From positions 32,001 to 96,000 of the forward strand of contig CAVXEP010000019.1 of assembly GCA_963760795.1 (NCBI GenBank): a stretch of DNA of 64,000 nucleotides, given 5' to 3'. Origin of the DNA: an uncultured delta proteobacterium (GTDB taxonomy: Bacteria; Desulfobacterota; Binatia; UBA9968). Both the position numbers and the translations under genes were made by a program. The notes under the pieces were generated by a model. The model saw nothing but the letters and a program-made list of their open reading frames with translations. It did no database searches and was not told the origin of the DNA. The first letter of the stretch is position 1, and each line of letters starts with the position of its first letter. Shown here piece by piece: positions 3,241 through 46,839 of the stretch.

Positions 3241-4128
3241 TTACTTGCGCTGTGCGAGAATCTTCAGGGCAGCTTTTTTGACTTTCATGTCCCGGTCATC
3301 CAGCAGAGCTTCTATCTCCCTTGGAAATCCTTGCATCGCGGCCTGCGCTGCATCCTCGGCTAATCTTTTAATCGCCAAGCCGCGAATCCTCGGGTCCGTA
3401 TCCTTAAGAAGCTTTCGGTAGACTTCGATGTGGTCTCGCGTCTCGGCTAACAGGCCGAAACAAGCGAGCGCATCGAAGCGCATGGCGGGTTCATCATGTT
3501 CCAAGCATTTCAGATAGACCTTGATGACGTCCTGCCGTTTCGCAGCGAAGCGCCAGAGGTTGAGCAGGATGGCGTGCTTTTGTTCCGAACCACCGTGCTC
3601 CAGCCGTTCTAGCAGAAGCGGCAGGATGCGATCGTCCCTGAGATTGCACAGCGCATTCACCGCCGTTTGCCGAACTTGCTCGTCGCTGTCATAGAGCCGC
3701 TCGATCAGGGGAATCCCCGCCTCAACGTTTCCCTTCCATCCCAACGCGAAGGTTGCGTGGAGTCTCAGATCGCGATCCGCGCTTGCGATGTCGTTGAGGA
3801 GCTTGTCGATCAGCGATCGAGCATCTTTCAACAACGGACCCATGACGCTTATCTGGATCGCGGCGTGCTGGCGAATTTCTTCGTCTTCCGCGCTGTCGGT
3901 CATGATTTCATACAACGGCCCAATGCATTGTTCATTGGCAAAGGTGCCGAGCACGAATAGTATTTCTCTTTTAAGCTCCCGGTCGGCGTGCTTGAGGGCT
4001 CTTAAGAGCAAAGGAATCGCCTGATCGCGCTCGTCAACGAACAGGTCGACGGATGCAACATAATTCTGAGCTTTCTCAAGAATCCGTTGTTTCGACTCGA
4101 ATTCGATTACGCGGGTGGTTTTTTTCAT
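3241..4128 (-). CDS. HEAT/PBS-lyase-like repeat protein
   Basis: Repeated units such as PLIERLYDSDEQVRQTAVNAL, LLKDTDPRIRGLAIKRL, LLDDRDMKVKKAALKIL. Confidence 0.85.
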   Translation of the reverse strand: MKKTTRVIEFESKQRILEKAQNYVASVDLFVDERDQAIPLLLRALKHADRELKREILFVLGTFANEQCIGPLYEIMTDSAEDEEIRQHAAIQISVMGPLLKDARSLIDKLLNDIASADRDLRLHATFALGWKGNVEAGIPLIERLYDSDEQVRQTAVNALCNLRDDRILPLLLERLEHGGSEQKHAILLNLWRFAAKRQDVIKVYLKCLEHDEPAMRFDALACFGLLAETRDHIEVYRKLLKDTDPRIRGLAIKRLAEDAAQAAMQGFPREIEALLDDRDMKVKKAALKILAQRK

Positions 4129-4158
4129 AAAATCGGGATCGCGAGGATGTAAGATTTT

Positions 4159-4681
4159 TCACGCATCGTGAATTCCCGTTCCAAGCTTTGGAACGACATG
4201 CCGCCCAACAATTATCAGATCGCGCTCCACGCCGTCCAGCTCGGCGACGCGCGGCAAAACGCCCCAGCGGTGAAAGCCGAATTTCTCGAATAGCCGCAGG
4301 CTCGCGTCGTTGTGGGCGAAGATGAAACCGAGGAGAGTTTTCAACCCCAAGTCGCGGCGCCTGCACGACCGCTTGAGAGAGCAGCGCGTTGCCGATTCCT
4401 TTGCGCTGCCAGTTCGGAGCGATGTAAACGCTCAACTCAGCGGTCGCATGATAGGCAGGGCGGCCATAGAACGATTGAAAGCTGAGCCAGCCGGCGATGA
4501 TATCGTTTTGCACCGCGACCCAAAGCGGCCGCGCGTTCGGATTGTGTTCATGGAACCAGTCACGCCGGCTTGCGACGGTTACCGGTTGGGTATCGGCCGT
4601 GGCCGCCCGTCCTGGAATGGACGCATTGTAAATTGCGACAATGGCCGGAAGATCAGCTACTATGGCATCTCGAATCGTCAT
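4159..4681 (-). CDS. GNAT phosphinothricin/methionine-sulfoximine acetyltransferase-like protein (YncA/Pat family), frameshifted near 4350
   Basis: IRDAIVADLPAIVAIYN...YGRPAYHATAELSVYI...RKGIG in one frame; GLKTLLGFIFAHNDASLRLFEKFGF in the other. Confidence 0.85.
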
Positions 4682-18067: not shown

Positions 18068-18133
18068 TTCACCACGAAGATCACGAAGTTCGGAGATTGG
18101 GTCATTGGAACCTTTCGTCATCTTGGTGGTGAA
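18068..18133. repeat. REP-like palindrome (CACCACGAAG family)
   Basis: ttcaccacgaagatcacgaag...ctttcgtcatcttggtggtgaa imperfect inverted repeat. Confidence 0.7.
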
Positions 18134-43373: not shown

Positions 43374-44420
43374 TTATTTGCGGAGAAATTCGCTTTCGAG
43401 TTTTCTAAAAAAACCTTCGCGGTCGAGCTCGTCCAGAATGGTCTCGTCGACGAAACGGTTTAAGTCCGTATCGATCTTAGCCCGCCCGGGTTCACGCTGG
43501 ATGATTTCAATCACATCCTGAACGCCGCGCCGGCCTATTCGCGGGGGAAACGAAAAGACGTTGTAATAGCCGTCGTAGGCGTCTTCGGCGAGTTTGCTGT
43601 TGATGCGCAAGCGTTTGGCCGTGAGGGCGACGATTTTGTCTTTCAACTGGGGTTGGTAACGCAAGCGATAGAGCGCTTCACTGATGCCTTGGAAAAACCG
43701 CTTGGCGTTGTCGCGCTTTCTTTCCAAGAAAGTACGCTCGGTGATAAACGCGCGATCTGGGAATTCCTTCACGATCTCGCCGAGATCGGCGAGGATGTTG
43801 TGCCCCCGTTGCAGTGCGATCGCGGCATTGCTGTAGGGAACCACGGTGCCATCGATGCCGCCAGCGATCTCCAGCGCGGTGAGCCGCGTCATGCTGTCGC
43901 CGGCCGGGACTATCTTGACCGACTCGGGCGGCAGCCCCCAGGATTTGAGCGCCATCAGGATGCTGAACTCGTTGGCGCCGCCGAAATTGACCACGCCGAG
44001 CTTCTTGCCCCGCAGGTCGGCAGGTTTTTGGATTTCCTTGCGCGTGACGAATTTATAGAGGTTGCGATTGAGGAAAGCGCCGGTAACGACCACGTTGGCA
44101 CCGGCCAGATTGGCGCGGATCGGAGCCATCGCGGCTACATTGGCCGAGTCGAGGCTGCGGCCGACTAGCGCTTGCATCAAGCGCGAACCGCCGCTGATCA
44201 CGACGAGATCGACATCAAGGCCATATTTTTCGAAGATACCAAGATCCTTGGCGACAAACAGCGGCAGTTCCTGTGGGCTGGTGCCACCTGCGCCGGCATG
44301 GATGTGGCGTTCGAGGGCTGCAACATCGGCGGTGCTAGCGGCGATGAAAAGCAAAAACGCGAGCACGACAGTGGGCGGAAACATAGACGCGTTTATAGTC
44401 TGGGGTTTAGGGAGATGCAA
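43374..44420 (-). CDS. SsuA/THI5-like ABC substrate-binding protein
   Basis: VAKDLGIFEKYGLDV, DLRGKKLG. Confidence 0.88.
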   Translation of the reverse strand: MHLPKPQTINASMFPPTVVLAFLLFIAASTADVAALERHIHAGAGGTSPQELPLFVAKDLGIFEKYGLDVDLVVISGGSRLMQALVGRSLDSANVAAMAPIRANLAGANVVVTGAFLNRNLYKFVTRKEIQKPADLRGKKLGVVNFGGANEFSILMALKSWGLPPESVKIVPAGDSMTRLTALEIAGGIDGTVVPYSNAAIALQRGHNILADLGEIVKEFPDRAFITERTFLERKRDNAKRFFQGISEALYRLRYQPQLKDKIVALTAKRLRINSKLAEDAYDGYYNVFSFPPRIGRRGVQDVIEIIQREPGRAKIDTDLNRFVDETILDELDREGFFRKLESEFLRK

Positions 44421-44469
44421 TCAGCCACCCGAAGTTGACCGATGGATTCTTGTTCACCACGAAGTGCAC

Positions 44470-45970
44470 AGCGCGGCTACGCCGCAACCAAAGTGACAGA
44501 ATAGTGTCTATCATGTAAATGGGAGTGATGGCTAAGACTCTCGACGGTTCGAGGAACGAAGGTGCGCAACGTTTCGTACAACGCCATCACGCCGATGTCA
44601 TCGGGGTTTTGGAAGGCTGGGATCGGCTGCGGCTGCAAGGGACGCTGCGCAGTCTCTATCATCCCTCGGTGATGGATTATTATCTGAAGCAATGTGGTGT
44701 TTTGTGGAAGGACTTTAAGACCTTTGTGACGGGCCTGACCGATCGGGTGAAGCAGTCTGCTGCGGCGTTGGCCATCGAGCATCGCCGTCCGATGATTTAT
44801 TTGCCATCGAGCCGCACTAGCAAGGAGGACACTGCCCGCCAGATTCAAGAGCGGGACAAGGTAGAGAGCGGGCTGATCGCGGTGTTCAGTTGCGTGGAGC
44901 CGTGCCGTCGATGGATAGCGCGAGGCAACCGGGCCACCCAGAAGTTGGAGCTGCGCTTGGAGTGGGGTAAATGCACACACCTTTACTTTTACTGGCTCCA
45001 TGAACAGCTGGGTTTTCTGCATTTTCGGCTTCAGACATGGTTCCCGTTTCTGATTCAGGTCTGTCTCAACGGACGGGAGTGGCTGGGGCGTCAGATGGAC
45101 GCTGCCGGGATTGCGTATCGGCGTGAGGACAACTGTTTCCCATGGATTGACGATATCGCTGGCGCCCAAGCGTTGATGGCCGAGCAGCTGCGCACGCGCT
45201 GGTCGAGCGTGCTCGACCCGCTGGTGCAAACAATGCCATCCGCTTAGCGCCGAGATCACCCGGCCCATCGAGCGCGACTACTACTGGACGGCTGCCGAGA
45301 GCGAATACGCCACCGACGTAATGTTTGGCGAGCGTGGAGCGCTGGAGCGGATTTATCCATCGTTGGTGCATCATGCGGTGATGAGCTTTGGCAGCGAACA
45401 GGTGCTGCGCTTTTTGGGGCATTCGGGCCGGTCTCCGGTTCAGGGCGAAGTTAAAACTGATCGGCGACGGCGTGTCGAGGGCGTGAGGATTAAGCACTGG
45501 GTCAATCAGAACTCGGTGAAGTGCTACGACAAGGGCAGCATTTTGCGTGTAGAGGCGACGATCAACCAACCCAAAGAGTTCCGAGTCTGGCGCGGGCCGG
45601 AGAATAAGCCTGAGGGTAAGAAGCAATGGCGCCCGCTGCGGCGTAGCGTGGCTGATCTGCATCGGCGTGCGCAGGTCAGCCGGGGTACCACCGACCGCTA
45701 TCTCACCGCGCTGGCCGCGGTGCATGTCCGTACTGCGCTGGCACAACAAGCGGCGACCGTATGCCGGCCTGTTGTGCGGCGTGATCGACGGCGCTACCGT
45801 GCGCTCAATCCGCTGGGGGACGCCGACGCTCAACTCTTGGCCATCGTCAACCGGGGCGAGTTTGCGCTCAACGGGTTTCGCAATCGCGATCTGCGTGCTC
45901 GTCTCTACGACGCCACCGAGGACCGAGAACAACAACGCCGGCAGATGACCGCGGTGGGACGGCGGCTCAC
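44470..45970 (+). mobile_element. Truncated IS-like element encoding a putative Rep-like (tyrosine) transposase
   Basis: Inserted in a REP-like palindrome with CAC at both junctions; terminal gcggc-tac-gccgc hairpin at 44473-44485; no terminal inverted repeats seen. Confidence 0.65.
44519..45970 (+). pseudogene. Putative transposase/Rep-like protein, frameshifted near 45230 and 3'-truncated
   Basis: GVLEGWDRLRLQGTLR, KCTHLYFYW, LQTWFPF, YYWTAAESEYATDVMF, KCYDKGSILRVEATIN, GFRNRDLR; the ORF runs into REP sequence after GRRL. Confidence 0.7.
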
Positions 45971-46042
45971 GAAGGTTTCAGATAATTATTATTCCGACCC
46001 TCGTGCTCTTCGTGCTTTCGCGGTAAATACCGACCGGCGATT

Positions 46043-46615
46043 TTACGTCGCTGCTTTGGCGGTCTTGGCAATGAACTTCAGGGCCACGCCGTTGTTGCAC
46101 CAGCGTTGGCCGGTCGGCTTGGGGCCGTCGTCGAAGATGTGGCCGTGATGGCCGCCGCAGCGTATACAGTGGTATTCGGTGCGCGGCAGGATCAGCTTAT
46201 AGTCGGTGGTCTTGCCGAAGGCGCCGGGGATGGTGGTGAAAAAGCTTGGCCAGCCGGTGCCGCTTTCGTATTTCATCTCCGAGCTGAACAGCGGCAAGTT
46301 GCAGCCGGCGCAGGCGAAGATGCCGGGCCGTTTTTCGCCGTTGAGCGGGCTCGAGCCAGGGGGCTCCGTGCCTTCTTCGCGCAGAATGTTAAACTGCTCG
46401 GCGGTCAAGCGCTTGCGCCACTCTTCTTTTGAAAGTTTTAACGGCTCGGTGGGCAGCGGCACTTTAACGCCGTCGGCGAGCAGCGTCTGCCAATTTTTTT
46501 GCAGCGCGTCAACGCTTTTTATCGGCGCAGCTGTCGCGGCGGTGGCAGCGCGGCTTTGCCAAATTGTCGAGAATCCAGCGGCCAGCATCCCTAAGCATAG
46601 CTTACGTCGCGTCAT
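46043..46615 (-). CDS. msrB: Peptide-methionine (R)-S-oxide reductase with a Tat-like signal
   Basis: GTEPP, CAGC, KYESGTGWPSF, CIRCGGHHGHIFDDGP, RWCNNG; MTRRKLCL start. Confidence 0.95.
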   Translation of the reverse strand: MTRRKLCLGMLAAGFSTIWQSRAATAATAAPIKSVDALQKNWQTLLADGVKVPLPTEPLKLSKEEWRKRLTAEQFNILREEGTEPPGSSPLNGEKRPGIFACAGCNLPLFSSEMKYESGTGWPSFFTTIPGAFGKTTDYKLILPRTEYHCIRCGGHHGHIFDDGPKPTGQRWCNNGVALKFIAKTAKAAT

Positions 46616-46839
46616 AGTTAATCTCCTCCATCGGCTAGCGCGATAACGCCGTTCGGCGGCGAATAGTTCCCAAGGTGGCACCCATTTGGCACCGAGTCGG
46701 CTTGTATTAAAACAGTAGGATCTCAATGACAAGGGCACATCGACTCGGATGGCGCCGCTCAGCGGGTCAACGCAGGCGGGCGGTAAACGGGGCATGTAAG
46801 CAGCGAATACAAGCGTCGATCAAAGCTTATGTCAAATGG

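Follow-up and report, generated by a model that had tools for sequence, protein, structure and literature searches.

A truncated, IS-like element inserted in a REP palindrome of an uncultured Binatia bacterium, with a probable tyrosine nuclease of TATA-binding-protein fold

The window analysed here, a 64,000-nucleotide stretch of contig CAVXEP010000019.1 from an uncultured delta proteobacterium of the Binatia, contains a repetitive extragenic palindrome (REP) that is split by a 1501-bp insertion, and this insertion, a broken copy of an insertion-sequence-like (IS-like) element, is the subject of the present report. The split REP is placed between the start of a gene for an NMT1/THI5-like substrate-binding protein (43374..44420, minus strand; Pfam PF09084, E = 3e-22) and the gene msrB, recognised by its SelR domain (46043..46795, minus strand; PF01641, E = 3e-41). 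The left part of the palindrome (44453..44469, plus strand) ends in ...TTCACCACGAAGTGCAC and belongs to the same heptad family as the uninterrupted REP at 18068..18133 (no strand assigned) that serves for comparison. The insert begins at 44470 with AGCGCGGCTACGCCGCAACCAAAG, and at its other junction (45970/45971) the sequence is ...GGACGGCGGCTCAC|GAAGGTTTCAGATAATTATTATTCCGACCCTCGTGCTCTTCGTGCTTTCGCGGTAAA, after which the REP picks up again as GAAGGTTTC...CTCGTGCTCTTCGTGCTTTCGCGGTAAA; this right part (45971..46027, plus strand) comprises the remainder of the left arm, the loop and the right arm, and of the 41 matches that the region has in its own genome, 38 are confined to the REP (45968-46030). 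Excision of 44470-45970 yields a palindrome of the same type as that at 18068-18133.

Contigs of four public soil-metagenome runs were aligned to window positions 44300-46400, and one of them, a 1481-nt contig of run X2 with a depth of 6.5, represents the empty site: it covers 44300-44466 and then 45968-46400, omits 1501 bases, and differs from the window flanks at 2 of 167 and 5 of 433 letters, its joint sliding by 3 letters where CAC fits on either side. A same-genus relative (G013, 87% identity over the binding-protein gene) likewise has an unbroken REP at the corresponding place, the DNA beyond being different. The first-pass annotation of this DNA had claimed that deletion of 44470-45970 restores a REP palindrome, and had pointed to relatives as the place to look for an empty REP between msrB and the binding-protein gene; the sequence as read and the X2 contig, which skips exactly 1501 bases, agree on the former, and the X2 contig and the relative supply the latter. 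Positions 44470..45970 (plus strand) are a discrete 1501-bp insertion in a REP palindrome, delimited as a 3'-truncated and frameshifted IS-like copy by the empty-site contig, the left end of its family and the point at which protein matches stop, with limits that slide by at most 3 nt owing to the CAC present at each joint.

The gene within the insert is broken in two ways. An open reading frame (ORF) at 44519-45247 and the frame open from 45177 jointly match proteins of 525-527 residues, the first part being 90% identical to a 527-residue protein, P0001, over 97% of the query. Gene part 1 (44528..45247, plus strand) has the M-A-K-T start of the homologues and runs to a premature frameshift stop. 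The frame switches in an A-run (gtgcaaacaatg; 45226..45231, plus strand), where related copies, as represented by contigs of runs X1, X2 and X12, are each one base shorter (at 45226-45229), and the window copy therefore has a 1-base insertion relative to intact relatives. Gene part 2 (45232..45969, plus strand), in the other frame, carries the E259xAxD263 and KxY333DK..LR340xE342 residues discussed below and ends abruptly at QMTAVGRRL, whereas contigs from the gene interior in the four runs continue beyond 45969 into full-length copies encoding ...RLLRAHGLIA. The protein match ends at about residue 478 of 527, in agreement with the earlier reading that the right end falls within the ORF, and the last ~49 codons (most of a winged helix) are missing together with the normal non-coding right end. 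The window copy is a dead copy of an IS-like element of ~1.7 kb. In a CACAAAG-type repeat of the own genome lies a second copy (locus L002, G000 C15:3150-4578), ~69% identical at the nucleotide level; its C-terminus and both its ends are preserved, but several frameshifts and one stop break it.

The form of the intact element is seen in five genomes, within each of which copies that are 98.6-100% identical have common limits over 1.70-1.85 kb and unrelated flanks. The intact element is ~1.7 kb long, with a single gene of ~526 codons and with both ends fixed. At its left limit the family consensus is C-N-N-AGC-GCGGC(C)-loop of 3-6 nt-(G)GCCGC-AACCAAA, present in the window as AGC-GCGGC-TAC-GCCGC-AACCAAA (44470..44492, plus strand; stem 44473-44477 and 44481-44485, loop 44478-44480), so placed that the flank CAC is followed at the left junction by AGCGCGGC...AACCAAA. 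Among 80 loci from many phyla, 59 have the motif ahead of the gene, some of the remaining 21 having little or no upstream DNA, and an alignment of 45 left ends has 14 invariant columns, a conservation that reaches far beyond that of the protein. The hairpin GCGGC-TAC-GCCGC (44473-44485) folds at -5.8 kcal/mol (z = -0.34; 73 of 200 shuffles fold at least equally well), and because its stability is unexceptional against shuffles it is conservation, not energy, that marks it. The family right end is ...TAGTAGTAC, ~35-45 nt past the stop codon in intact relatives and followed at the canonical right junction by GAAGG; TAGTA or TAGTT stands there in 39 of 54 loci (rows counted manually), and most of the others are TAGCAATAC-like.

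No terminal inverted repeats were found in the element, and the trinucleotides at the two joints of intact copies are unlike (CCC/TAC, CAC/TAC, CTT/ACA), so there is no target duplication; a 3-bp duplication of CAC was considered and rejected on these grounds. The first-pass annotation had described the left-end hairpin, the lack of terminal inverted repeats and CAC at both junctions. The hairpin is present and is conserved in the family, its energy being ordinary, and the ends are without inverted repeats as described. CAC does lie at both joints of the window copy, but as a duplicated or termination site it fails, given the CCC/TAC or CTT/ACA of intact copies.

Non-autonomous derivatives carry the same ends. 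In its strict form the left-end motif has 20 occurrences in the own genome (a relaxed pattern, whose 135 hits were for the most part noise from GC-rich coding sequence, was set aside), and four of the 20 were recognised by eye as complete miniature inverted-repeat transposable elements (MITEs) of ~165-300 bp (C25:94820, C15:136858, C20:219065, C7:69566). Their right ends, ...TAATA, ...TCATA, ...TATTA and ...TAGTAC, some overlooked by the regular expression used for right ends, stand directly 5' of the REP CGAAG. At locus L064 a ~155-bp MITE (4117-4271), made of a left end and a copy of the right end, comes directly after a full-length element in head-to-tail arrangement, which suggests that the right end (..TAC) can itself be a target. 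Locus L108 was considered as a further case of a right end abutting a left end and was rejected for want of a hairpin left end, and the arrangement occurs in L064 only. A shorter MITE-like form, in which the hairpin is followed by AAATGGGAAAGAG and then by the REP, was also noted (C7:111840, C18:124771, C34:67256). Of the generic marks of IS and MITE families, nearly identical copies that stand at different loci and agree in their ends, an empty site and end-sharing non-autonomous derivatives were all found; with multiple copies ~99% identical in five genomes, the earlier claim of a real and poorly described family of mobile elements is upheld.

As to the target, the 10-mer CACCACGAAG occurs 247 times on both strands of the 6.58-Mb genome, against ~12.6 expected, and the repeat to which it belongs fits the definition of a REP, namely a short imperfect palindrome that is intergenic and of high copy number. 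A same-strand C/T-A/G-CGAAG heptad was found within 28 nt upstream of the left-end motif in 9 of the 20 own-genome occurrences and its complement in none (0/20), the background for strict heptads within 25 nt being 0.6%, and the right flank of the element carries the heptad on (GAAGG...). In other phyla the flanks are the host's own heptad repeats (CACAGAG, CGCAAAG, CACGGAT, CACAGAT), continued past the right end. Insertion is confined to one orientation and takes place within the CAC|GRAK heptads of host REPs, the cut lying within C-A-C at a position resolved to 2-3 nt at best. The preference for REPs claimed at first is in this way confirmed, and described more closely as insertion beside a C-N-Y trinucleotide that is often CAC.

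With both ends of the family known, the mid-ORF end of the window copy appears as a truncation peculiar to this one copy. The 3' loss stops exactly at the border between element and REP, a coincidence with the target position that deletion at random would seldom produce and that suggests the work of an enzyme; two such routes fit, misplaced internal cleavage in the course of transposition and a deletion with the right end as its anchor. The former is in essence the idea of the first-pass annotation, in whose view rolling-circle copying from one fixed hairpin end stops early at a CAC-like pseudo-terminator and the family yields variable right ends and one-ended insertions. The 1501-bp unit suits this view in being a clean indel with an intact left end, a right border exactly on the REP target position and CAC at both joints, and evidence presented below for an enzyme of the Rep_trans kind makes rolling-circle chemistry possible. 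However, 15 near-identical copies compared in five genomes all have one right end per genome (one of them, L104, is without its left flank), the canonical right end is kept in MITEs, and truncated copies elsewhere (L046, L051, L055, L109) end in unrelated ways. At the break point, moreover, full-length relatives read ...GGCTCA and then G, only CA being common with the REP, and a deletion anchored at the right end would look identical to an early stop. Early termination is accordingly judged unlikely, and the claim of variable ends was given up in favour of a truncated copy of an element with two fixed ends.

Two minor observations concern the interior of the gene. One of the truncated copies, L051 (G003:C10), has lost both ends (residues 139-485 remain), and its 3' break lies 7 residues from that of the window copy and adjoins a different repeat. 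An 18-nt inverted match (83%) to the left-end hairpin region lies at window positions 45637-45654, over LRRSVAD codons; the intact element L047 showed no counterpart, and the match is probably due to chance.

Among soil and freshwater bacteria the family is abundant, and it extends over many phyla. A word-indexed search gave 1679 proteins at E <= 1e-3, and among the matches listed nearly all have 525-528 residues, are named 'hypothetical protein', are without a Pfam domain and come for the most part from contigs 1.6-4 kb long. When 1.84 billion representatives (50% identity clusters) were searched with a profile, the yield was 8703 representative clusters at E <= 1e-3, 4528 at 1e-10 and 1236 at 1e-30, and on one-genome-per-species contigs 354 of 458 candidate stretches were confirmed. 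By record title the confirmed loci belong to Deltaproteobacteria/Binatia, Verrucomicrobia, Acidobacteria, Planctomycetes, Nitrospirae, Gemmatimonadetes, Spirochaetia and others, of which short contigs may be mis-binned. In the window's own genus 6 of 31 genomes have a match, and three intact copies were found in one of these (G018). Plasmid records gave only 11 matches, none of which reaches 32% identity, the best being annotated as an ArsR family regulator, and none of 15 pattern matches in 2.9 million viral contigs was confirmed as a relative. A 31%-identical homologue, called 'ArsR family regulator' by NCBI, was observed between two cytochrome c genes on Paraburkholderia phytofirmans plasmid pOLGA1 (L130, 252808-254322), where the hairpin followed by AACCAAA is retained upstream.

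Searches for a named relative returned little. Pfam, NCBIfam, PHROG and PADLOC gave no match beyond weak winged-helix hits; Rfam gave none at E <= 1 for six loci; the ESM Atlas gave only unnamed 'hypothetical protein' clusters, with no usable named match for residues 13-400; and profile searches of PDB sequences gave only chitinase noise, or MarR at E > 0.05. In the open-access full-text literature, ISfinder being outside that search, no paper was found that describes this family or any transposase of Rep_trans type or TBP fold (TBP, TATA-binding protein).

Structure prediction was more informative. An AlphaFold2 model from 103 diverse sequences (pLDDT 92.9, pTM 0.81; a model from 25 close sequences only had a pLDDT of 49.6 and was left unused) predicts a TBP-like saddle with a C-terminal winged helix. 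In a Foldseek comparison of this model with the PDB, chains A-D of 4cij, the Rep_trans initiator RepSTK1, occupy ranks 2-5 (E 9e-3 to 2e-2), and 4cwe, another match, is at rank 28 (E up to ~1e-1). Two matches at E <= 1e-3 and several at probability 0.96-0.99 were obtained in BFVD, with Inoviridae proteins among them as well as giant-virus TBPs; one, A0A345MNV4 (probability 0.99), is an inovirus Rep_trans initiator according to PMC13107129. PMC4797284 describes TBP as the only structural neighbour of Rep_trans, the catalytic tyrosine and the RxYxK, RxE and RxDxAxD motifs as lying on separate strands of a sheet, and the metal as held by two aspartates and a glutamate (E214, D142, D46).

The conserved residues of the family can be read in the same terms. 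D32, E259, D263, K331, Y333, K335, R340 and E342 are invariant or above 90% over the 103 sequences, and A261 is invariant in the 25 close ones; the YDK...LRVE segment picked out in the first-pass annotation corresponds to Y333, D334, K335, R340 and E342, with Y333, R340 and E342 invariant in all 103. Y333 falls in a predicted strand (328-334) and R340 and E342 in another (338-345), and E-x-A-x-D, K-x-Y-x-K and R-x-E follow on successive predicted strands in the Rep_trans order. That order is given in PMC5714925 as N' D, I RxD, II T/SxY/ExG, III YxKxxE and IV W/LxRxE. Compared by eye, the family has D32, E259xA261xD263 without the Arg, KxY333xK335 without Glu at +5 and L/V-L-R340xE342, which correspond in order to motifs N', I, III and IV. 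Other transposase chemistries were not recognised, as the first-pass annotation had already held for DDE and HUH motifs: Y1_Tnp (PF01797), Y2_Tnp (PF04986), DEDD_Tnp_IS110 and Transposase_20 gave no Pfam match, a conserved His pair is absent from the invariant columns of the 103-sequence alignment, no DDE family of Pfam was matched, and no RNase H fold is among the listed structural matches, which TBP and winged-helix hits dominate. Taken with the predicted fold, these residues suggest that the enzyme is probably a tyrosine nuclease of the Rep_trans kind that combines a TBP fold with a winged helix at its C-terminus for DNA binding.

A number of results weigh against this assignment and the interpretation built on it. 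No Foldseek match in the PDB reached E <= 1e-3 and the TM-score to 4cij was ~0.25, and the VIA structure search listed TBP, with 4cij not among its best 50 rows. Motif II and the Arg of motif I are not recognisable in the family alignment, and PF02486 matched neither the window ORFs (E <= 0.1) nor P0001, P0020 and P0070 (E <= 10). With hhalign, comparison with four Rep_trans sequences gave a probability of 1.8% (E = 0.027 over 146 co-linear columns), which is not significant; comparison with a 36-sequence Rep_trans alignment gave 0.8% and a spurious C-terminal match; and the catalytic cores alone aligned in motifs III-IV only (score 22.3, P = 0.024, with 3 of 40 column shuffles equal). The residue roles proposed below follow motif order and predicted strands, not spatial positions. 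At the level of DNA, RNAalifold found no consensus structure at the right end, and the own genome (89% complete) contains no intact copy, both of its copies being broken. Since the profile statistics are not significant, the enzyme class is one that we infer. The idea of a Rep_trans-like protein, and the structural and profile comparison proposed for it at first, thus come out divided: fold and motif order favour it (the TBP-like saddle, 4cij at ranks 2-5, the BFVD matches, the structure leaning to Rep_trans at E ~1e-2), and the sequence comparisons with Pfam and hhalign do not.

The lack of a significant sequence link to Rep_trans would also be expected if the 526-residue protein were a DNA-binding regulator or accessory factor, with a TBP-like saddle and a winged helix, and the element depended for its movement on another enzyme, of the host or otherwise, for instance a Y1 transposase associated with REPs. 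The annotation of the Paraburkholderia homologue as an ArsR family regulator and the three Y1_Tnp matches in the own genome speak for this. However, the gene is the sole gene of an element that is multicopy in many phyla, and its invariant Tyr, Arg, Lys and acidic residues alternate on predicted strands in the manner of an active site. The copies have common ends but not common REP flanks, and the element therefore moves on its own and not with the REP. No exact CACCACGAAG lies within ~1.5 kb of the three Y1_Tnp loci. A purely regulatory protein is on these grounds improbable, and a nuclease encoded by the element itself is preferred. The three own-genome PF01797 matches (C9:1600-1926, C25:48409-48738 and C25:43983-44156) could in themselves be REP-associated transposases.

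Comparison with known systems places the element more exactly. The Rep_trans/MOB_T proteins (pT181 RepC/RepD, inovirus and CTX-phi Rep, Tn916/ICESt3 relaxases) resemble the family in a TBP-like catalytic sheet, here predicted, in a tyrosine on a beta-strand in K/RxYxK followed by RxE, in an acidic (D/E)xAxD strand and an N-terminal Asp in the same order, and in having a separate DNA-binding domain and a hairpin at the DNA site. They differ in that the present family has ~526 residues with large saddle insertions and no detectable sequence homology, that its DNA-binding domain is a C-terminal MarR/ArsR-like winged helix, and that it resides on a 1.7-kb multicopy chromosomal element with MITEs and not on a plasmid, phage or integrative and conjugative element (ICE). 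Plasmid, phage and ICE functions are the Rep_trans roles named in the accessible part of the review PMC5714925, which gives none in transposition. A further parallel is Rep-Arvir (DUF7845, PF25227) of archaeal viruses and plasmids, which according to PMC13107129 has an N-terminal TBP-fold domain and a winged helix and was recognised only via structure searches, with the same mixture of TBP and inovirus Rep_trans hits. Rep-Arvir is an archaeal replication initiator, whereas the present family is bacterial and IS-like, and PF25227 had no match at E <= 10 in P0001, P0020 or P0070.

Among insertion sequences, IS200/IS605 elements share with the family the lack of terminal inverted repeats and of target duplication, a left subterminal hairpin (recognised in IS200/IS605), orientation-specific insertion just 3' of a short motif, a link to REP-like hairpins and a right end that finishes with a similar short motif (here TAC versus CAC); unlike them, the family is without Y1_Tnp or HUH, its protein is more than three times larger, and a right-end hairpin is unsupported. 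IS91/ISCR elements are alike in one gene of ~500 codons, no target duplication, dissimilar ends and insertion beside a short specific sequence. In IS91 a missed terminator leads to one-ended products; the present family, by comparison, is without Y2_Tnp, the zinc-binding domain and HUH, and its ends are constant in all multicopy sets examined. IS110/IS1111 elements, several of which insert in REPs, also have no terminal inverted repeats, high target specificity and a conserved non-coding left region, but DEDD_Tnp_IS110/Transposase_20 and any Rfam match are absent here, and in place of a long non-coding region, as for the bridge or seeker RNA, the untranslated left part is ~55-130 nt in most loci. 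RAYT/REPIN systems are likewise tied to abundant REP palindromes; here, in contrast, the REP is target and not cargo, the ends being common and the REP flanks not, and the protein is not a Y1 transposase. Overall, the element would belong with the tyrosine-nuclease, hairpin-guided, REP-targeting IS elements.

Two further explanations carry very little weight. Known TBP-fold tyrosine nucleases are replication initiators or relaxases (PMC4797284, PMC5714925 and PMC13107129), and the element might on that account be what is left of a replicon, from a rolling-circle plasmid or a filamentous phage, that had integrated; this is most improbable for a unit of only 1.7 kb and one gene that has several ~99% identical chromosomal copies within single genomes and has MITEs, with none of the 15 viral pattern matches confirmed, no PHROG match, and the few matching plasmid records all distant. 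Equally hard to credit is an assembly artefact at the repeated CAC/REP sequence, affecting the right junction or the entire occupied form: neither occupied junction is bridged by the contigs listed from the four runs, the assembly being the source of the occupied form, and gene-side contigs run into full-length copies, but the left junction is the canonical family junction, the piece lies inside a 341-kb contig and has its own frameshift and sequence differences, repeats are expected to break short-read contigs, and a chimera would have to hit the exact target position.

The insertion at 44470-45970 is therefore best explained, in probable though not certain terms, as a dead copy of a REP-targeting IS-like element of a family for which no description was found and whose enzyme would be of the Rep_trans kind. 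Fixed ends, orientation, target, MITEs and the empty site are observed parts of this model; the chemistry that would connect them is suggested by motif and fold. The winged helix and the saddle would bind the left-end hairpin on the top strand, and Y333, on its predicted beta-strand, would act as nucleophile, nicking the junction and staying linked to the 5' phosphate. D32, E259/D263 and E342 are candidate metal ligands, and K331, K335 and R340 candidate helper residues. The element strand may then be displaced and released, or copied, as far as ...TAGTAGTAC, in a rolling-circle or peel-and-paste manner as in IS91 or IS200/IS605, and a second cleavage and joining would free it. The freed strand would be joined into a REP heptad exposed as single-stranded DNA, and the donor would be either restored (as in IS200/IS605) or kept (as in IS91).

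It is an even question whether this would be the first IS family with a TBP-fold tyrosine-nuclease transposase of the Rep_trans superfamily, specialised on REP hairpins as single-stranded targets, and there is a fair chance that the transposase class is new. If so, it would add a further structural class of prokaryotic transposase to DDE, DEDD, HUH, tyrosine and serine recombinases and Cas1, and the Rep_trans-type chemistry of plasmid and phage replication and of conjugation would extend to transposition, in parallel to HUH chemistry in IS91, IS200/IS605 and Helitrons. Thousands of clusters now called 'hypothetical protein' or 'ArsR regulator' would become recognisable as a transposase class, with better annotation and IS detection in soil metagenome-assembled genomes, most members lying on 1.7-2 kb contigs that break assemblies. 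A compact enzyme with a 20-nt hairpin site and one-orientation insertion into a short motif of structured DNA may also be of interest as a tool.

The element also offers a new handle on REPs as landing pads. Similar heptad REPs (CACGAAG, CACAGAG, CGCAAAG, CACGGAT) lie beside it in unrelated phyla, and they may have co-evolved with the enzyme family or may even have been spread by it. Other repeats were observed at these sites. In the same-genus relative G013, a different repeat (..CGTCATACCCGCGAAAGCGGCTATCCAGGCT..) stands beside the empty REP (locus L121, reverse strand, ~1230-1440), and this repeat also occurs in the genome of the window near C20:56919. In the genome of the window, a repeat family unrelated to the element stands directly after CACCACGAAG on C3, C4 and C5 (TGTCCATGAGCTTACGCTCG... 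and TGAATCATGATCTCACGCACG...), and a second element therefore seems to land in the same REPs.

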